Assembly: GCF_000026545.1 (NCBI RefSeq) | Contig: NC_011601.1 | Source: Escherichia coli O127:H6 str. E2348/69 | Lineage (GTDB): Bacteria; Pseudomonadota; Gammaproteobacteria; Enterobacterales; Enterobacteriaceae | Direction: 5' to 3' (one strand) | DNA length: 64,000 bases | In this document: positions 9,597-49,831 of the stretch, piece by piece | Layout of the letters: every line of letters begins with the position of its first letter | Numbering within the stretch: the first letter of the stretch is position 1 | The notes under the pieces: model-generated | What the model was told of the DNA's origin: nothing | The model's database searches: none | The model's input: only the letters and a program-made list of their open reading frames with translations | Made by a program: the position numbers and the translations under genes

Positions 9597-10577
9597 CTAA
9601 CGTCCTGCTTTTAACAATAACCAGATAAACACCGGCGCACCCAACGTTGCGGTGACCACGCCAATTGGCAGCTCTGCGGCAGCTAATGCCAGGCGCGCTA
9701 CAATATCGGCCAGCAGCAATGCGCTCGCCCCTGCCAGCGCGCAGCCGGGAAGTAATACGCGATGATCGGTTAAACCACACAGCCGGAGAATATGTGGGAT
9801 CACCAGACCAATAAAGCCGATAGCACCCGCCAGCGCCACACTGACGCCAACCATCCAGCCGGTCGCTGCCACCAGCACATTGCGCCAGAACCACAGGGGT
9901 AAACCCAGTTGCCGCGCCGAGATCTCGCCAAGTGCTAATATATTCATCGGCCTGGACTGACAACAGATCCACAACAACACGGGGATCAATGCCAGCATCA
10001 GCCAGCTTTGCCGCCAGTCTACGCCGCCAAAACCGCCCATCATCCAGTACATCAGCTGACGTAAATCAACAGAGGTGGAAAAGTAGATAGCCCACGTCAT
10101 TAGTGCGCTACAGATAATCCCTAATGCAACGCCAGCCAGCAATAACCGACTGGTCGAAAGATGACGACGGGCGAAACGTAAGAGTATTAAAGTGATGATA
10201 AGTGCGCCTGCAATCGCACACAGCCCTAGCGCCCAGTTGGGGAGTTGCCCTTGCCCAAGCAATACCGCGGCGATAAGCCCCACGCCTGCGCCGTTAGAGA
10301 CGCCAAGTAGTCCAGGTTCTGCCAGAGGATTTTCAAACAACGCCTGCATTACAGCGCCGGATATAGCCAGCGCCGCACCAACCAGCAATACAGCCAGCGT
10401 ACGTGGCAGGCGAATTTGCCAGACGAACAGTTCGCCACGAGGAGAAAACCAGTCACCTGGCAAAATCCATAGTTCACCGGCGCAAAGGCTTAAGAGAAGC
10501 GCCAGTAGCATCAAAACTGACAAGCATAATAACCAGCGAATATTTTGTCGCTGTTGTTGGCGGGCAAGTGTCAGCAT
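9597..10577 (-). CDS. btuC: vitamin B12 ABC transporter permease
   Basis: 326-aa polytopic membrane ORF; FecCD-type permease; operon with btuE and btuD. Confidence 0.9.
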
Positions 10578-10635: not shown

Positions 10636-10660
10636 AAAGAAAAAAGGCCGCAGAGCGGCC
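10636..10660. repeat. attL core (direct repeat aaagaaaaaaggccgcagagcggcc)
   Basis: Identical 25-mer found again at 47095..47119; the hairpin ggccgcagagcggcc is the ihfA terminator stem. Confidence 0.85.
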
Positions 10661-14940: not shown

Positions 14941-17763
14941 ATGACGGCAGAGTACATCAGGGACTGGCAACAACCGCGCCACGCAGTGGGGCGTGAAGGA
15001 ACGGGGATCCCCGCTCCTGAATCCGCGCTTTCCTCCTGGCTGGATGCCTACCGGGCAGAGAACGAGCACCGCCAGGAAATGGCTGATGCGGCGTTCTCCG
15101 CCACGCCGCTGGGCAACCTGATTAATAAAAGCCTGGACGCACAGGAAAAACAGGACAAAACCATCACACTGGCAGGAGACGCCAGAAAACAGGCACGCGG
15201 CGCGGTGGATGAAGCCATGGCCTCGCTGCGCCTGCTGCCGTCCTATCTGCGCGATCCGCTTATTCGCCACCTCTCCTTCCTGCGCAAAAAACAGGAAGCC
15301 GATCGTCAGAAAGGAAAAAACGCCAGGCAGGCAGAACGCTATGCGCGTGGGACCCTGCGCAAAATATTCGAACGTCTGGAGCGCACCGATCACCGCTGGC
15401 TGACACCGGGTTATCGCTCCCTTGCCGGACGCGAACGCCTGGACGATTTGCTTTACCTGCCGCAGCTCAACAAACACCAGATAAAGACGCTGGCAACCAT
15501 GACGGCGGCGATGTTCAGCAGCACCTTCGAAAAACTCTGCGATGGCTTTGGCGCGACCGATGGCGAGCTGACCATGGATGTAACCCTGAAGGCGTATCAG
15601 ATGCTGGCCCGCATGGCGTTACACCTGCACGCCATGCCTCCACATTATGACGCACTGACAACAGACAAAGACCGGAGGAACGAACCGGACACGGAGCTGC
15701 TGCCGGGCGCAATCCTTCGCCTGACCTGTGCGGAATGGTGGAAACGCAAACTGTGGCTGTTACGTTGCGAGTGGAGAGAAGAACAACTCCGCGCCGCCTG
15801 TCTGGTTTCCAGAAAAACATCGCCCTATCTGAGCCAGGACGCGTTAAGCGAGTTTCGCGCACAGCGCGAGAAAACACGCGATTTCCTGAAAAGTTTCATG
15901 CTGGAAAACGAAGACGGGTTCACGATTGATCTCGAGACAGTGTATTACGCGGGAGTAAGTAACCCGGTTCACCGTAAGGCAGAAATGATGGCCACCATGA
16001 AGGGACTGGAACTTCTGGCCGAAGCCCGTGGCGACAGAGCGGTGTTTCTGACTGTCACCTGCCCGTCAAAATACCACGCAACAACGGAGAACGGTCATCC
16101 GAACCCCAAATGGAACGGGGCCACCATGCGCGACTCCAGCGATTACCTGGTTAACACGTTTTTTGCGGCGGTCCGCAAAAAACTGAACCGCGACGGCCTG
16201 CGCTGGTATGGCATCCGCACGGTGGAGCCTCACCATGACGGCACCGTGCACTGGCATATGATGGTCTTTGCTCATCCGGAAGAAATCGACAGCATCGTGA
16301 CCATCACCCGCGATATTGCCATTCAGGAAGACCGCCACGAGCTGGGCAATGATATTACTCCGCGCTTTAAGGTGGAGTACGTCGACGGCACCAAAGGCAC
16401 GCCAACCAGCTACATCGCCACCTACATCGGAAAAAACCTGGACAGCCGCGCCGTGGATGGCATCGACCCGAAAACGGGCAAACCACGCGTTGACCACGAA
16501 ACCGGAAAATCAATGGCCGAGAGCGTGGAGCGCGCCATCGGTTGGGCACGCCTTCACCGGGTCCGCCAGTTCCAGTTCTTTGGCATCCCCTCCCGTCAGG
16601 TGTGGCGTGAACTCCGCCGCCTTGCCAGCCAGATGGCACGCAACCCGGAAGGCCCGCAACGGCTGAAGGATGACGCAATGGATGCGGTACTCGCTGCCGC
16701 TGATGCCGGATGTTTTGCCACCTACATAGAGAAACAGGGCGGTGTACTTGTTCCACGCAAAGACTACCTGATTCGCACCGCCTACGACCTCGCCGATGAG
16801 CTGAACGATTACGGCGAACAGAGTGTACAGATTTACGGGATCTGGTCACCACTCATCGGGGAATCCTCCCGTGTGTGCACGCACCCGGATAACTGGAAGC
16901 TGGTAAGACGTAAACCGGAACAGGAAGGCAGCGCCCACGAAAATGGTTTTGACCTTCAGGGCGGCCCTGCCGCCCCTTGGACTCGTGGCAATAACTGTCC
17001 CCGTGTACAGGAAACGGACAACAACGGGACAGAACAGCCGGAAGAACGGCCAGCACCGTGGCCGCAGCTCCCTGACGGCGTTGAAGTGAACGAATGGGTG
17101 CGCTCACTGAAACGGCACGAACGCCGGGCGCTGATGCGTTCGCTTCGTGACAAACAGGCAAAAAACAGCAGTGATGAAATGCAGAGCTGGACACAGAGCC
17201 GCAAACAGCAGCGGCCTTTGCCTGATAACCACGAATTACTCGCTAAAGAATGGCGGGAGTCTGCTGAATCTCTCGGCCTGCATATCGGTGAACAGCAGAT
17301 GCAGCACCTGTTACGGGGCGGCAGCCTGTACGTTGACGGCAGCATCATTGCACCGCAGGGATATGAAATTGTACGTAAACCGGATACCCGCCCGGACAGC
17401 CGAATCACGCAGCTCTGGCAACGCCTGAGCCGTAACCACGGCGTAAGCAGCACGGAGATCCGCCATAACCCGGTCGCCAGCTATCTGGAACAACTAGGGG
17501 CATCAGACCCTGAAGCCGCCGCACGCCTGGCATCCACACTTCAGCAAGACCAGAACACCATGAAAACACCCGTTACCGTACTTTCTGACATGCTGCGCGC
17601 CATCCGCGACGCAGAGCACGAACAGAGAATCAGTGAAACAACTGAACGCGCCCGCCGCAAAGCAGACCTGCTGCGGGGTGGCCTGACCAGTGGAAACAAA
17701 AAACAGACAAAAACGGGATTCACAAATCCCGTAAATGAGCAAAAAACGCGCCGCGATATATGA
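14941..17763 (+). CDS. A: replication initiation endonuclease, P2 gpA family (rolling-circle initiator)
   Basis: 940-aa ORF; HHDGTVHWHMMVF (HUH-type) and YIATYIGKN (catalytic Tyr) motifs; about 180 aa longer than P2 A. Confidence 0.85.
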   Translation: MTAEYIRDWQQPRHAVGREGTGIPAPESALSSWLDAYRAENEHRQEMADAAFSATPLGNLINKSLDAQEKQDKTITLAGDARKQARGAVDEAMASLRLLPSYLRDPLIRHLSFLRKKQEADRQKGKNARQAERYARGTLRKIFERLERTDHRWLTPGYRSLAGRERLDDLLYLPQLNKHQIKTLATMTAAMFSSTFEKLCDGFGATDGELTMDVTLKAYQMLARMALHLHAMPPHYDALTTDKDRRNEPDTELLPGAILRLTCAEWWKRKLWLLRCEWREEQLRAACLVSRKTSPYLSQDALSEFRAQREKTRDFLKSFMLENEDGFTIDLETVYYAGVSNPVHRKAEMMATMKGLELLAEARGDRAVFLTVTCPSKYHATTENGHPNPKWNGATMRDSSDYLVNTFFAAVRKKLNRDGLRWYGIRTVEPHHDGTVHWHMMVFAHPEEIDSIVTITRDIAIQEDRHELGNDITPRFKVEYVDGTKGTPTSYIATYIGKNLDSRAVDGIDPKTGKPRVDHETGKSMAESVERAIGWARLHRVRQFQFFGIPSRQVWRELRRLASQMARNPEGPQRLKDDAMDAVLAAADAGCFATYIEKQGGVLVPRKDYLIRTAYDLADELNDYGEQSVQIYGIWSPLIGESSRVCTHPDNWKLVRRKPEQEGSAHENGFDLQGGPAAPWTRGNNCPRVQETDNNGTEQPEERPAPWPQLPDGVEVNEWVRSLKRHERRALMRSLRDKQAKNSSDEMQSWTQSRKQQRPLPDNHELLAKEWRESAESLGLHIGEQQMQHLLRGGSLYVDGSIIAPQGYEIVRKPDTRPDSRITQLWQRLSRNHGVSSTEIRHNPVASYLEQLGASDPEAAARLASTLQQDQNTMKTPVTVLSDMLRAIRDAEHEQRISETTERARRKADLLRGGLTSGNKKQTKTGFTNPVNEQKTRRDI

Positions 17764-17808
17764 AGCGCGCACAAAACAGGCGAAAACGGGATTTAAAAAT
17801 CCTGTAAC
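17707..17808. repeat. two copies of a roughly 28-bp element, each with an internal hairpin (acgggatt-N-aatcccgt)
   Basis: acaaaaacgggattcacaaatcccgtaa at 17707..17734 and gcgaaaacgggatttaaaaatcctgtaa at 17781..17808, spanning the gene A stop and the parM-like start. Confidence 0.6.
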
Positions 17809-17839
17809 CGATTAATTAATCAACATAAGGAAAAGCGAC

Positions 17840-18799
17840 ATGAAAATTTGTATCGACGACGGCTCCACCAACATCAAGCTGGCATGGACTGAGAACGGCG
17901 AACACCGCAACGCCATCAGCCCGAACAGCTTCAAGTCGGAATGGTCTGCGCCGTTCGGTGGCACGCAGCCCGCGAACTACATGCTTGATGGCGTGCGCTA
18001 TGGTTTTGATCCGGTCAGCGATCGCTTTGTCCAGACGACCGACACGCAATACCAGTACAGCGATGTGAATGTCATTGCCATTCATCATGCGCTGGTCAAA
18101 TCAGGCATCACGCCACAGGAGGTGGATGTGGTTGTCACCCTGCCACTGAGCGAGTATTTCGACACAAACGCACAGCCGGACATGGCCAACATCAACCGCA
18201 AAAAAGCGAACGTTATGCGCCCGGTGGAGTACCAAAACGGCGAGGCATTCACTATCCGTAACGTGCGGGTTATGCCTGAATCCATTCCGGCTGGCTTTAA
18301 AGCACTGGCTGACATGAGTCCGTTTGAATCCCTGCTGATTGTGGATTTGGGCGGAACCACGCTGGATGTGGCAAAGGTTCAGGGGCAACTGGCAGGTATC
18401 AGCCAGGTGTTTTGCGATCCACACGTAGGCGTTTCTCTGATGGCCGATGCCGTGCTGTCGGTGATGGCCACCAACGGTATGCGCACCAGTCACCACATCG
18501 CCAATACCATTATCGAACATCGCCACGATGAAGCCTGGCTGCGCCAGCACATCCACAATGACGCGCATTACGCCAGCCTGATGGCAGTTATTCGTGAAAA
18601 GGAGGAAACACTGAAACAACGCGTGATCCGCGCGCTGGCGGTTTTTTCGGGTTACGGGCGGGTGATGGTTGTCGGTGGAGGGGCGGAGATTGTGGCACCC
18701 GCTATCCGCGAAGCCTGCGGAGTTAATGCGACTTTCATCGCGGACGGGGTGCCACAGTTTGCTCTGGTTAATGGGCTGTACGCAATGGACAAGGAGTAA
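17840..18799 (+). CDS. ParM/StbA-type actin-like segregation ATPase
   Basis: 319-aa ORF; N-terminus MKICIDDGSTNIKLAWTE and the segments YSDVNVIAIHHAL, VMPESIPAG, LLIVDLGGTTLD, VMVVGGGAE parallel plasmid R1 ParM (StbA) along the whole length. Confidence 0.8.
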   Translation: MKICIDDGSTNIKLAWTENGEHRNAISPNSFKSEWSAPFGGTQPANYMLDGVRYGFDPVSDRFVQTTDTQYQYSDVNVIAIHHALVKSGITPQEVDVVVTLPLSEYFDTNAQPDMANINRKKANVMRPVEYQNGEAFTIRNVRVMPESIPAGFKALADMSPFESLLIVDLGGTTLDVAKVQGQLAGISQVFCDPHVGVSLMADAVLSVMATNGMRTSHHIANTIIEHRHDEAWLRQHIHNDAHYASLMAVIREKEETLKQRVIRALAVFSGYGRVMVVGGGAEIVAPAIREACGVNATFIADGVPQFALVNGLYAMDKE

Positions 18800-18803
18800 A
18801 CCA

Positions 18804-19115
18804 ATGACGACTCCAACCAGACGGATAAGTTTCTATCTGAAGCCCACCGCCGTCAAGAACGAAGGAGAAGCATGCGCCTGGCTGGACAGCCTTACACCAG
18901 AAGCCCGCAAAAGCGGCCAACGCGTGGCTTTTCTGGCCGGGCTGGCACTTCTGAAAATGAATCCGGCAGAGGCTTACCGACTGGCTGCATGGGCTGATGA
19001 TGAGGTGTTATCAGTGACACAAACCAAGACAGAACGCCCCGCGTCACAGCCAGTATCAACCGCACAGATAACCAGTCAGATGGCCGGAAATATCCGGGCG
19101 TTATTTCCTGAATAA
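18804..19115 (+). CDS. ParR/StbB-like adaptor protein
   Basis: 103-aa product from MTTPTRRISFYLKP inside the listed 18669..19115 ORF; N-terminal region parallels R1 ParR (RRxIxFxLxP ... LDS ... AGLAL); follows the parM-like gene. Confidence 0.6.
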   Translation: MTTPTRRISFYLKPTAVKNEGEACAWLDSLTPEARKSGQRVAFLAGLALLKMNPAEAYRLAAWADDEVLSVTQTKTERPASQPVSTAQITSQMAGNIRALFPE

Positions 19116-19493
19116 CATCAGGGCGTATTCGCCCTGCCACCAATCCCATAACATAAAGAACGGGGTGCAAATCACTATACACCCCGTTCCAATACAAACC
19201 ATCAGAAGATCTACACATCTTTCTCAAATGGCCAAGTAATCGAGCTGGTTCAGGAATAAGCATGCTGCCAACACAAGTGAAGGAGATAAAACTGTAGAAC
19301 TGATCAATCGTTGGAAACAAGTATTGACAGTATGTTCGAGTAACCCAACTGGATAGATTTTATGCTGATTATCCATACAGTAAAAAAGTAAGGATACTCT
19401 TTGAATTACGCCAGCAAGAGTGGTAACATTAGTCAATGATTTTCATTAATGTAGTTACCAGCTTACACAAGCTGATGTTTTATTGGGGGTTTT

Positions 19494-20576
19494 ATGGTAA
19501 ACGTGAGGGAGGATGAACTTTTCAAACTCATCGAGCAAGGCATCAAAGGCAACGCAAATGCATTTACACTCCTATGCAGAAAGATGATTAACAACATCCG
19601 TAAAAATGATGAGGCTTTAGCTTCTAAGCTGGCTTCGTTAGTTGCTGAGGGAACAGTATTACGTGGGGCATCTAGTAAGGCTCCTATGCCTGTGGATGGA
19701 GACTCCAGACGAAACCTTTTGCAGGAAACATCTGTCAACGCAATTGTTGAAGAACCTGTATGGAATACGGATATCTCAAAGAAGCTGGAGTCAATTGTTA
19801 ACGAAAGAGAGAATGCGGTTTCTTTGTTCAAAGCTGGTCTTGAACCTGTGAAGACGGTTTTACTTTCTGGCCCGCCAGGCGTAGGCAAAACAATGTCCGC
19901 ACATTGGCTTGCTGCAAAGTTAAATTTACCTCTTTTAACATTGGATCTCTCATCTGTAATGAGTTCTCTTTTGGGAAAAACAGGTAATAATATTAAATCC
20001 GTTATGGATTATGCCAAAGAGAAACCATGTGTCCTTTTGCTTGATGAATTTGATGCTGTTGCAAAAAGACGTGATGATGACAGGGACGTTGGAGAATTAA
20101 AACGTTTAGTTACTGTACTCCTACAGACCATAGATGAGTGGCCAGCGACCTCGCTTCTTGTTGCTGCGACTAATCACCCTGATATCTTAGATCCGGCTGT
20201 TTGGCGTCGATTTGAGCACATCCTTAAATTTAATATGCCATCAGTAGAACTGATAGATAGATATTTAGTCAATCATAATATTGAACCTGAACTATCTAAA
20301 AAACTTGCACCATTATTAGATGGCATGTCCTTTGCCATCATTAACCGTATTTTGAATTTCTCCAAAAAGAATGAGGTACTTAGAAATATTCCATTTGAAA
20401 GCTCATTAATAGAAGCCGTAATTACGGAGAGGGTTTCATTGGATGAGTTTAGCGATAATGATCTCAATATAATTAAATATCATTTTGACGGTTTTTCAAA
20501 TAGGAAGATAGCTGAATTAGTTGGTGTTTCACATCCAACAATCGCGAATAAATTACAAAAGTGGGGGATTAAATGA
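19494..20576 (+). CDS. AAA+ ATPase with C-terminal HTH-like segment (candidate defence component A)
   Basis: 360-aa ORF; Walker A LLSGPPGVGKT, Walker B VLLLDEFDAV, sensor-1/Arg-finger ATNHPDILDPAVWRRF; C-terminal NRKIAELVGVSHPTIANKL; AT-rich codon usage. Confidence 0.8.
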   Translation: MVNVREDELFKLIEQGIKGNANAFTLLCRKMINNIRKNDEALASKLASLVAEGTVLRGASSKAPMPVDGDSRRNLLQETSVNAIVEEPVWNTDISKKLESIVNERENAVSLFKAGLEPVKTVLLSGPPGVGKTMSAHWLAAKLNLPLLTLDLSSVMSSLLGKTGNNIKSVMDYAKEKPCVLLLDEFDAVAKRRDDDRDVGELKRLVTVLLQTIDEWPATSLLVAATNHPDILDPAVWRRFEHILKFNMPSVELIDRYLVNHNIEPELSKKLAPLLDGMSFAIINRILNFSKKNEVLRNIPFESSLIEAVITERVSLDEFSDNDLNIIKYHFDGFSNRKIAELVGVSHPTIANKLQKWGIK

Positions 20577-22777
20577 TGGAAAGGAACTTACTTTTAGGTA
20601 ACGGTCATGTTCTGACAAAAAAGGAACCTTTGCCTAAAGGAAGGGATGGTAAGCGCTATCCCTATACTCTTGAAGAAGTAAGGGAGCATTTAAACCCAGA
20701 GATTGATACTTTACTCTCACGCTTTCGCAGTTTGGATGATGCGGCTAAGCCAAGGGGGGAGAGTGTATTCAATTTAACTTTACACCCAGCGTTTTTGGGT
20801 AAAAGCTACTTTCCGGAAGGATTGCTTAGAGCGACAGGTTTACGGGATGTCGGCAGCCGTCAGGTAATCATTCGCCCACGGAAAGCGGCACGTCAGTGCG
20901 ATCAGAATAAGGACTTAGTAACGGCGCAACTGTTTGTTAGCGGTGATGATGATGCCGTTATAAGATTTAAGGAAATTTTAAATTCCCCTACAGCTCCGAA
21001 GGGCGTACAAAAGGATTTGATCGAAATTGAAAGTGTTAGCTTTTTTGAAGGAAAAGAGAGAGCACGCAATTTTGAGCATGCGAAAAGTGATTTGATAAAA
21101 TTTGAAGTGGTTCTTCATGCTGGGGTTGAAGACGATGATATCGTTAAAGCCTATATTAGCTATGCGGCACAATATGATGTCTCTGTTGATTACAAAAGTA
21201 GAATCCAAGTTGGTGGGCTGACTTTCATCGTTGCACACGCGCGACCTGAAGATATGAAAAAAACACTCGATTTTTCATTAATCCGCGTTGTGCGGCCGAT
21301 GCCGTCTCTCAGGTGTACTCAGCCGAACATTGTCAGAAAGTTATCTAATATAGTTACACCGGAGCTCCCTAATTCTAAAGCTGTTCTTGAATCCGAACGT
21401 ATTGCCATTTTTGATGGTGGCTTGGGGACAGCTGACTTGAGTAATTGGGTTACGGAATACGTGTATCCAGACACCAAAGAAACAAGCGGATTATTATTGC
21501 AGCACGGTAATGAAGTGACATCCACTTTCTTATTCGGACGTGTCGAGGAAAATGCACCTTCTTTTAAAAGACCGTTTATGAATGTAGATCATTATAGAGT
21601 TCTTTCACCGACATCAGGTGACAATGGCAATTGGGATTTATTTGATGTCCTTAAGAAAATACAGTCCGTTCTTGATAGTGGTGACTATAAGTTCGCTAAT
21701 CTAAGTATTGGTCCTCATCTTCCAATTGGTGATGATGAGGTTCATGTATGGACTGCTGTTTTAGACCAAATCTGTGCTAAGCATGGGATATTACTTACTG
21801 TTGCTGTTGGGAATGATGGCAATGAGGACGGTGATGCAGCGAGAATACAACCTCCTTCCGATATGGTAAACGCGCTAGCGATTGGTGCTGCTGATCGTAG
21901 CGGTGAAAAATGGGGGCGGGCACCATATAGCTGTATTGGGCCAGGCAGAAGCCCCGGATTCGTTAAACCTGATGGTGTTATTTTTGGTGGAAGCGACGAC
22001 GAGCCTTTTTACACTTACAACCCTCTGCTTGGTTCTATAGTTGGAGTTCAAGGAACCAGTTATGCCTCTCCATTAGCATTGAGAACGGCCGCTGGAGTTG
22101 CGGCTCTATCAGGAACTCCATTGAACACCATTGCATTGAAAGCGTTGCTTGTTCATCATGCTGAAACATCAAGAAAATATTCGCGTGAACATATCGGTTG
22201 GGGACGGTTTAGTGAGGATCCTAACGTTTTAATCGATTGTCCAAATGATACTGCTACAGTAATTTACTATGGTTCATTAGCAAAAAATAAATATTTAAGG
22301 GCACCGATCCCATTCCCTGATGTTCCCTTTGACGAAGCATTTGAGCTTACCGCTACTTTATGCATTCAAACCCCAGTAGATCCTGAACATTCAGTAAACT
22401 ATACAAGGGCCGGTATGCAGGTAACTTTCCGCCCAAGATTCGGCCTTGACGATACCGATACAGATGATTTCTTTGGTCAAAAAAGCCAGTATAAGACTGA
22501 AAGGGAGTGTAGGAGTGAAGGTCATAAGTGGGAAACTTGTTTGCACAGAAGCAAAAAGTTCAGTGCTGATACATTATTAAGCGATCCAGTTTTTGATATA
22601 CGGTATCATGCCCGAGATTCTTCGCGCCATGTTAAGGGAGTTTCAGCCCCTGATATGCAATATGCGATGGTAATAAGCGTAAGGGTAAAAGACTTTGATT
22701 TATATAATGTTATTCGCCAGCGATATACAATTCTGAATCCTATTCAACTGCGCACACAAATTTCTCTCGACACGTAA
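20573..22777 (+). CDS. subtilisin-like S8 serine peptidase, large multidomain, no signal peptide (candidate defence component B)
   Basis: 734-aa ORF, ATGA-overlapped with the ATPase gene; S8 motifs in order: Asp IAIFDGGLG, His LLQHGNEV, Asn VAVGNDGNEDG, Ser GVQGTSYASPLAL; about 260-aa N-terminal and 200-aa C-terminal extra regions. Confidence 0.8.
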   Translation: MMERNLLLGNGHVLTKKEPLPKGRDGKRYPYTLEEVREHLNPEIDTLLSRFRSLDDAAKPRGESVFNLTLHPAFLGKSYFPEGLLRATGLRDVGSRQVIIRPRKAARQCDQNKDLVTAQLFVSGDDDAVIRFKEILNSPTAPKGVQKDLIEIESVSFFEGKERARNFEHAKSDLIKFEVVLHAGVEDDDIVKAYISYAAQYDVSVDYKSRIQVGGLTFIVAHARPEDMKKTLDFSLIRVVRPMPSLRCTQPNIVRKLSNIVTPELPNSKAVLESERIAIFDGGLGTADLSNWVTEYVYPDTKETSGLLLQHGNEVTSTFLFGRVEENAPSFKRPFMNVDHYRVLSPTSGDNGNWDLFDVLKKIQSVLDSGDYKFANLSIGPHLPIGDDEVHVWTAVLDQICAKHGILLTVAVGNDGNEDGDAARIQPPSDMVNALAIGAADRSGEKWGRAPYSCIGPGRSPGFVKPDGVIFGGSDDEPFYTYNPLLGSIVGVQGTSYASPLALRTAAGVAALSGTPLNTIALKALLVHHAETSRKYSREHIGWGRFSEDPNVLIDCPNDTATVIYYGSLAKNKYLRAPIPFPDVPFDEAFELTATLCIQTPVDPEHSVNYTRAGMQVTFRPRFGLDDTDTDDFFGQKSQYKTERECRSEGHKWETCLHRSKKFSADTLLSDPVFDIRYHARDSSRHVKGVSAPDMQYAMVISVRVKDFDLYNVIRQRYTILNPIQLRTQISLDT

Positions 22778-47094: not shown

Positions 47095-47119
47095 AAAGAA
47101 AAAAGGCCGCAGAGCGGCC
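47095..47119. repeat. attR core (direct repeat) overlapping the ihfA terminator
   Basis: Same 25-mer as at 10636..10660; on the minus strand it gives the ggccgctctgcggcc hairpin plus T-tract just downstream of ihfA. Confidence 0.85.

Positions 47120-47440: not shown

Positions 47441-49831
<2,391 letters not shown>

Follow-up and report, generated by a model that had tools for sequence, protein, structure and literature searches.

A ParM/ParR-type segregation cassette with putative paired binding boxes behind gene A of integrated P2-like prophages of Escherichia coli

Why does a prophage that resides in the bacterial chromosome carry the DNA-segregation genes of a plasmid? The question is raised by a 64,000-nucleotide stretch of DNA, here called the window, which is 100% identical to the chromosome of enteropathogenic Escherichia coli (EPEC) E2348/69. 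In it gene A of a P2-like prophage is followed by genes for an actin-like ATPase, ParM, and a small adaptor, ParR, and repeats are located upstream of parM. We favour, at about an even chance, the explanation that this is a complete type II (ParM/ParR/parC-like) DNA-segregation cassette which would act on transient circular phage DNA and not on a standing plasmid prophage; functionally related systems of other integrated elements are discussed below. Pfeifer 2021 discussed P88 as a phage that may exist both as an episome and in integrated form. According to Rousset 2022 such a system is carried by about one in four of the P2-like prophages of E. coli, and the same speculation that they may be episomal was made there. 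Module and episome idea were thus already known; because both are published and the genes are covered by standard annotation (PGAP, PHROGs), the finding as such is not new. Added here are a phage-specific ParM clade, the strength of selection, a count of chromosomal versus plasmid places, the domain and allele structure of ParR and a two-box site in place of R1-type iterons. In the literature searched no paper testing the function of the module was found.

The product of the open reading frame behind gene A aligned end to end with ParM of plasmid R1 (PDB 1mwk, E = 8.6e-93, 315 residues), and its full length was covered by matches to the Pfam domains StbA_N (3.7e-82) and ParM C-terminal domain (9.8e-69). 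A first-pass annotation of the window had called this frame colinear with R1 ParM (StbA), and the profile searches bore this out. The nucleotide-binding motifs, the lack of which would have spoken against an actin fold, were all present on alignment: the phosphate-binding loops DDGSTNIK and DLGGTTLD, the catalytic segment MPESIPAG and the adenosine motif GGGAE are intact. By alignment and motifs the protein is the actin-fold ATPase that is typical of type II (ParMRC) partition systems. Identity to plasmid ParMs was 46.5-52.3%. In NCBIfam ParM scored far below the cut-offs of the ParM and PRTRC models and ParR had no match; this is due to the narrowness of equivalog models and not to an absence of homology.

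The following open reading frame, which had been described as ParR (StbB)-like at its N-terminus, matched the Pfam family Plasmid_stab_B (PF10784) with E = 8.5e-24. A single ParR sequence yielded no sequence match in the PDB. A six-sequence profile was needed, and it matched the solved structure of ParR/StbB from pB171 (2jd3, E = 3.9e-13), in agreement with the earlier description. Residues 1-65, a ribbon-helix-helix-type N-terminal domain, align with StbB/ParR of R100. The C-terminal tail, NIRALFPE, aligns with the tails of plasmid ParRs, i.e. NAMKLIN in R100 and NIKNLFPDDE in an IncF plasmid. Comparison of 75 related loci divided the protein into a constant domain (residues 1-65), a hypervariable linker (residues 66-92; window 18999-19080) and a constant C-terminal tail. 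This layout is what one would expect if a flexible linker connected a DNA-binding domain to a peptide that binds ParM. At least three ParR allele classes are found on nearly identical parM genes; the alleles of O157:H7 and E2348/69, for example, are 53% identical. An AlphaFold model of the ParR monomer had helices at 18-29, 32-52 and 86-100, yet at low confidence (predicted local distance difference test, pLDDT, 63), and hence was not used for a fold search. Encoded directly downstream of parM and composed of an N-terminal domain and a C-terminal tail, ParR has the predicted make-up of the small adaptor of type II systems.

Does the cassette have a site at which ParR might bind? The first-pass annotation had reported two repeats of about 28 bp, each with a hairpin, which span the A stop and the parM start. 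The repeats are present, and their length is really 38 nucleotides; the copies are 84% identical and 73 bp apart, and the first is contained in the last approximately 65 nucleotides of gene A (Table 1). The 20-bp palindromes within them fold at -10.7 (copy 1) and -9.0 kcal/mol (copy 2), with z-scores of -3.9 and -2.2. Each contains a dyad box, GGG-N10-CC(C/T). In E. coli, Hafnia and Plesiomonas the 260 nucleotides before parM have exactly two matches to this pattern, at -125/-52, -128/-55 and -131/-59 from the parM start, respectively, spaced by 73, 73 and 72 bp. Such GGG-N10-CCY boxes were absent before the parM genes of R100, IncK, IncF, phage D6, an integrated plasmid and an integrative and conjugative element (ICE). 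The pattern was defined after the E. coli and Plesiomonas sequences had been seen; the spacing of 73 bp then predicted the position of the upstream Hafnia box, and it was found there. Because the layout recurs across genera and a box pair appeared in none of 20,000 shuffles of the three upstream regions, it is beyond chance. In the whole window the degenerate pattern had 15 matches against 10.4 expected, i.e. no enrichment; the significance of the boxes is therefore in position, pairing and cross-genus recurrence.

Both boxes were kept in 80 of 81 P88-like loci. One IMG/VR locus had lost exactly the 73 bp between repeats, which left a single box and an altered end of gene A. In each of two other IMG/VR loci an identical base change was found in box 1 and box 2 (AGG in both; AAACCC/AACCCC), a hint at concerted change between the copies. 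Box variants were not associated with ParR allele classes, and the N-terminal strand of ParR is identical across the classes.

Another possibility is that the palindromes are unrelated to ParR and form RNA or DNA hairpins, e.g. elements for mRNA stability or intrinsic minus-strand terminators that protect gene A against antisense transcription. Copy 1, read on the minus strand, is a stem followed by TTTTTGTCTG and was found as such by a terminator scan, and the E. coli stems fold better than shuffles. Yet the inner stem bases are not conserved in Hafnia and Plesiomonas. There only the outer GGG/CCC pairs are kept around a 10-nucleotide 'loop' and the z-scores are weak (-0.5 to -2.4), whereas position and the 72-73 bp spacing are retained. 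Among E. coli loci the stem shows uncompensated variation (17719 T/C), and no Rfam family matched the palindromes. Hairpins as the functional entity are therefore very unlikely, and the terminator reading was rejected on comparative grounds, i.e. stems are lost while box position and spacing are kept. Because inner stems are lost elsewhere, boxes fold poorly and stem variation is uncompensated, the conserved feature is, as judged by comparison of sequences, a pair of dyad half-sites one helical turn apart and repeated after seven turns. This is the signature expected of a protein-binding site and not of an RNA or DNA hairpin.

The three box-bearing lineages share the ParR N-terminal segment TRR(I/V)SFYL. 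The corresponding segments in Serratia (NRKISFYL) and R100 (RRTIAFKL) differ and are accompanied by other repeats. The earlier suggestion that the repeats serve as centromere or operator sites for the ParR-like protein has thus gained comparative support from two boxes at the same distance in three genera and from the shared segment; it has to be amended in that the conserved unit is a dyad, not a hairpin. The putative parC consists of two units only, of a type unlike the R1 iterons of eleven bases, with position and spacing kept in three genera and no promoter above the scan threshold. A subclade represented by Serratia (locus L010, 5880-5980) and Enterobacter (locus L091, upstream of 5001) lacks GGG-N10-CCC boxes and has, in their place, a long inverted repeat, GGGAAC..ATAGAAAAATG / CATTTTTCT.TTTC, which in Serratia has perfect arms of 14 nucleotides 26 nucleotides apart, plus ATTTCATGACC twice. 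It may be a centromere of another kind, paired with a related ParR (NRKISFYL).

How might parM be expressed? The motif ATTAATCAA behind box 2 may be the -10 region of a parM promoter; it was below the threshold of the promoter scan, which found nothing above threshold on the plus strand. Transcription through gene A from the early operon is at least as likely as a dedicated parM promoter. The A stop and the parM start are 76 nucleotides apart, and a terminator scan predicted no terminator-like sites on the plus strand between the two genes. Together with the shared strand this makes co-expression with the early replication operon plausible. The length of gpA varies from 785 to 940 residues among parMR-bearing phages (the window compared with loci L007, L009, L010 and L091), and its C-terminal tail overlaps box 1. 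The last four gpA codons exist in two forms in E. coli, RRDI* and RHKT*.

Next, we consider the evolution of the cassette. ParM homologues with 54-62% identity were found in Hafnia, Plesiomonas, Serratia and Enterobacter, all in P2-like prophages, and in these four genera the gene order is gpA, zero to two small genes, parM, parR, variable cargo and portal. ParMs from plasmids and ICEs are at most 53% identical to the window protein, and those homologues inspected at 50% identity or below resided in an integrated plasmid and a conjugative element. In a scan of species-representative genomes gpA was upstream in all four loci with a ParM of at least 58% identity and in none of those at 53% or below. 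In a neighbour-joining tree of 108 ParMs, calculated without bootstrap support, the phage-linked proteins formed one clade of two subclades, apart from all plasmid proteins including those of R100 and D6. Between distant phages ParM is 53-74% identical compared with 33-57% for gpA and 29-86% for the portal protein, ParM being higher than portal in most pairs. The gene trees of ParM, gpA and portal disagree; thus the phages are mosaic. Among 75 P88-like loci parM was intact in all and parR in 74. The ratio of nonsynonymous to synonymous diversity (piN/piS) was 0.063 for parM, compared with 0.276 for the adjacent part of gene A and 0.37 for the first 65 parR codons. This demonstrates that parM is under strong purifying selection. 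Located directly after gene A, the cassette is an old module which selection has maintained in P88-type and related P2-like phages.

Plasmid-type genes in an integrated element could also be taken for decaying remnants, no longer functional, of a former phage-plasmid or of recombination with a plasmid. The selection data contradict this: the genes are intact in practically all P88-like loci, the piN/piS of parM is low, synteny is kept across phages with a portal identity of only 29-51%, and the module is frequent in E. coli (see below). A functionless relic is barely credible.

In which replicon does the cassette reside? The prophage is P2-like, of the P88 / Xuanwuvirus type, and by megablast 94-97% identical in DNA to P88, P884B11, Citrobacter phage phiSM and others. 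As the first-pass annotation had it, the cassette is inside an integrated prophage: the host genes btuC and pheT are on its flanks and a 25-bp direct repeat, probably the attL/attR core, is found at either end. While phage-plasmids are defined as extrachromosomal prophages in lysogens, the window copy is integrated between host genes with a duplicated attachment (att) repeat. Among 5426 complete E. coli genomes the 1.4-kb module was present in 1306 (24%), at 1452 chromosomal places and 2 plasmid places. PGAP labels the genes 'plasmid segregation protein ParM' and 'plasmid partitioning/stability family protein', beside 'replication endonuclease'. In 50,697 phage records only 16 ParM relatives were found, 14 in P88-like phages and 2 in records of phage D6, which fits the statement that canonical P2 has no partition genes. 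The 80 loci kept from a scan of viral contigs were all near-identical. Species-representative genomes, when scanned, gave only 25 loci, mostly on draft contigs, which do not settle the replicon state outside E. coli.

Seven 'plasmid' records of PLSDB matched the module. Three were examined; the remaining four measure between 228 kb and 1.4 Mb. NZ_CP148288.1 (pZ1323PEC0009-2, from a finished genome of a cat E. coli) lists a whole P88-like phage as a circular 'plasmid' of 34,461 bp with int, cox, A, parM, parR, structural genes and hok. A sister strain, isolated from a human in the same study, has a 100% identical phage integrated in its chromosome. In NZ_CP110658.1, a record of a Salmonella IncHI2 'plasmid', region 99424-140848 contains the chromosomal housekeeping genes ffh, rpsP, trmD, pheA and tyrA together with a P2-like prophage that carries sopE and parMR, with IS26 at the borders. 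Either a segment of a chromosome was captured or the record was misassembled. The third record is a linear fragment ridden with IS1.

These data bear on the possibility that the phage is a facultative phage-plasmid. Depending on host or conditions, for example if attB is missing or Int does not work, a low-copy circle would be kept for many generations by replication from gpA and its origin and by ParMRC partition. The cassette is complete and close to R1 ParMRC, the circular record pZ1323PEC0009-2 comprises a whole P88-like genome whose identical counterpart is integrated in the sister strain, and the Plesiomonas homologue is located on a phage-sized contig of 32 kb. On the other hand, chromosomal places outnumber plasmid places by far, and integrase and att duplication are retained. 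Two of the three PLSDB records examined turned out to be a chromosomal segment and a linear fragment, and the lone circular record may be excised or induced DNA that was assembled separately. The only replication gene seen in the prophage is that of the P2-type gpA rolling-circle endonuclease. P2-type gpA drives lytic rolling-circle replication and is repressed in lysogens, which would also argue against a plasmid state. Pfeifer 2021 scored gpA as 'plasmid-like replication', and both this paper and Rousset 2022 suggested such a state. We consider a facultative phage-plasmid possible, if doubtful. A bolder version would have P88-type phages pass through a regular plasmid-like phase, with circles driven by gpA and partitioned by ParMRC via a minimal two-box centromere. 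Where attB is occupied or missing, for example, lysogeny could be inherited over generations without integration, and the replicon would be a low-copy plasmid. This we regard as unlikely. The proposal of the first-pass annotation that the prophage may persist as, or derive from, a phage-plasmid is thus not supported by the distribution of the module, by the integrated window copy with its att duplication or by the PLSDB records, of which only one of the three examined is a phage-sized circle. An occasional or transient episomal state is possible.

How does the cassette compare with known systems? With ParMRC of R1 and R100 it shares the order of repeats, parM and parR, a full-length ParM alignment, and the ParR N-terminal domain and tail motif. 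As in R100 parC, two blocks flank a central segment; the blocks are 49 nucleotides long and 94 bp apart in R100 and 38 nucleotides long and 73 bp apart in the prophage. However, ParM is only about 50% and ParR 26-27% identical, and R100 parC has A/C-rich 11-bp iterons and no GGG-N10-CCY box, whereas the prophage has one dyad box per block. Further, the module is carried by a phage that integrates and not by a plasmid, and gene A contains one of the repeats within its coding region. The closest relatives are P88 and other Xuanwuvirus, Citrobacter phage phiSM and the sopE-carrying Salmonella P2-like prophage, with 94-97% DNA identity over A-parM-parR and 95-99% identity of ParM. In P88 and relatives the genes are already annotated as ParM / partition protein, and the window copy differs only in its cargo and ParR allele. 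The P1-like phage-plasmid D6 also has a phage-borne ParM/ParR pair (StbA/StbB), and its annotation notes the similarity to P88 StbA. In contrast, D6 is a plasmid prophage of 91 kb with TCTCA-type upstream repeats, and its ParM, 47.8% identical, is placed among plasmid ParMs in the tree.

Two systems of normally chromosomal elements are of particular relevance. SrpMRC of the SXT/R391 ICEs is a type II system that was shown to stabilise both a test plasmid and the circle formed on excision; its SrpR binds to repeats located in front of srpM (Carraro et al. 2015, PMC4489591). It differs in that SrpR has no recognisable ParR homology, SrpM is distantly related, expression is with int under SetCD, and the element is conjugative and not a phage. 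In the integrated prophage CGP3 of Corynebacterium glutamicum the AlpAC/alpS system is induced early and is needed for efficient replication of the excised circle (Donovan et al. 2015, PMC4446434). Here, too, an actin-like protein, AlpC, is combined with an adaptor, AlpA, which is known to bind the upstream region of its own operon. Unlike the E. coli module, AlpAC is Gram-positive, unrelated in sequence and has the adaptor gene first, and no evidence links the E. coli module to replication efficiency. Similarly to these systems the E. coli prophage has an actin-like protein, an adaptor and a putative upstream site on a chromosomal element; this is a functional analogy without membership by sequence.

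This leads back to the transient phage circle as the substrate of a type II system. For ParR-box binding, autoregulation, timing of expression and biological pay-off we infer the following. ParR dimers would bind both GGG-N10-CCY boxes, which are 73 bp, i.e. seven helical turns, apart and straddle the A stop codon at 52 and 125 nucleotides before the parM start. Occupancy of box 2 would probably also repress a weak promoter there. The C-terminal tail of ParR would capture the ends of ParM filaments, and the filaments would push copies of the phage DNA apart. The substrate could be the circle that exists between infection and integration, at which stage a few early copies could be spread to both daughter cells, and/or the circle after excision, during early rolling-circle replication. 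A transient circle is favoured since nearly all finished genomes have the phage in integrated form, its normal state. That a type II system is in use is suggested by the complete list of parts and by selection.

Several points weigh against this explanation. R1 parC has ten iterons compared with just two boxes here, and the boxes may act as an operator alone with the centromere elsewhere. The boxes were defined post hoc, the upstream Hafnia box being the only true prediction, and a different repeat is found upstream of parM in the Serratia/Enterobacter subclade. The A-parM spacer, with a mean diversity of 0.062, is little less variable than synonymous sites in parM (0.074), so that population data alone are no proof of spacer constraint. 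ParMRC requires at least two DNA copies; a benefit before integration therefore presupposes some early replication. Lastly, the listing of an identical phage as a 34.5-kb circular replicon in one finished genome fits a phage-plasmid better.

The neighbourhood of the cassette points to a further alternative, hotspot cargo with a competitive role. The module might cause incompatibility with, or exclusion of, relatives or plasmids sharing the boxes, or might affect segregation of a locus of the host chromosome. It is located in the gpA-gpQ interval, a hotspot of anti-phage systems (Rousset 2022), and the anti-phage pair IetA (AAA ATPase) and IetS (S8 peptidase) directly follows parR as cargo. In addition, the ParR linker alleles are hypervariable, as is often the case in conflict systems. 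IetA and IetS matched PADLOC models (3.6e-89 and 6.6e-41, respectively), whereas no PADLOC defence family matched ParM or ParR. The module is always at the same place after A or its small neighbours while the cargo past parR varies, and parM evolves very conservatively. Cross-reaction with common plasmids is unlikely because boxes and ParR are unlike those of R100, IncK, IncF and D6. Overall a competitive role is decidedly unlikely. The IetAS pair itself is a divergent variant, since the NCBIfam IteA/IteS models matched below cut-offs.

Two strong hairpins directly 3' of parR mark the end of the conserved module, with variable cargo beyond; megablast matches to other phages stop at about 19110-19197. 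They would halt transcription from the late Q/P side and would not end the parMR transcript.

Table 1. Positions in the window of the segregation cassette, its putative sites and flanking features.
Feature	Position	Strand	Remarks
btuC	9597-10577		host gene, flank of prophage
25-bp direct repeat AAAGAAAAAAGGCCGCAGAGCGGCC	10636-10660 and 47095-47119		at both ends of the ~36.5-kb prophage, which lies between btuC and the ihfA/pheT side
Gene A	14941-17763	+	P2-type replication endonuclease, 940 aa; phrog_91, E = 5.9e-277; ORF list
Direct repeat, copy 1, 38 nt	17697-17734	.	inside A coding tail; dyad box 1 GGGATTCACAAATCCC 17715-17730, palindrome 17713-17732
Direct repeat, copy 2, 38 nt	17770-17807	.	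A-parM spacer; dyad box 2 GGGATTTAAAAATCCT 17788-17803, palindrome 17786-17805; possible half of a ParR operator/centromere
ATTAATCAA	17815-17823	+	conserved in the E. coli, Hafnia and Plesiomonas loci, 11-14 nt past box 2
parM	17840-18799	+	actin-like segregation ATPase, 319 aa; Pfam, PDB 1mwk, phrog_691 'partition protein'
parR (stbB)	18804 (ATG)-19115	+	adaptor, 103 aa; Pfam PF10784, phrog_2515 'partition protein', 2jd3 profile
Two hairpins 3' of parR	19119-19136 and 19157-19190	-	terminator-like on minus strand only
IetA	19494-20576		AAA ATPase
IetS	20573-22777		S8 peptidase
pheT	47441-49828		host gene, other flank of prophage

The module is among the commonest accessory modules of E. coli prophages, and its carriers include EPEC, O157:H7, Citrobacter rodentium and the sopE-carrying Salmonella phage. 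Candidate roles are a higher rate of lysogenisation, stabilisation of the excised circle, organisation of lytic replication or a plasmid state. With a two-box site, a small module and an inducible phage, P88, the role is directly testable. Knowing it would clarify the extrachromosomal phase of integrating phages and how sharp the line between phage and plasmid is.

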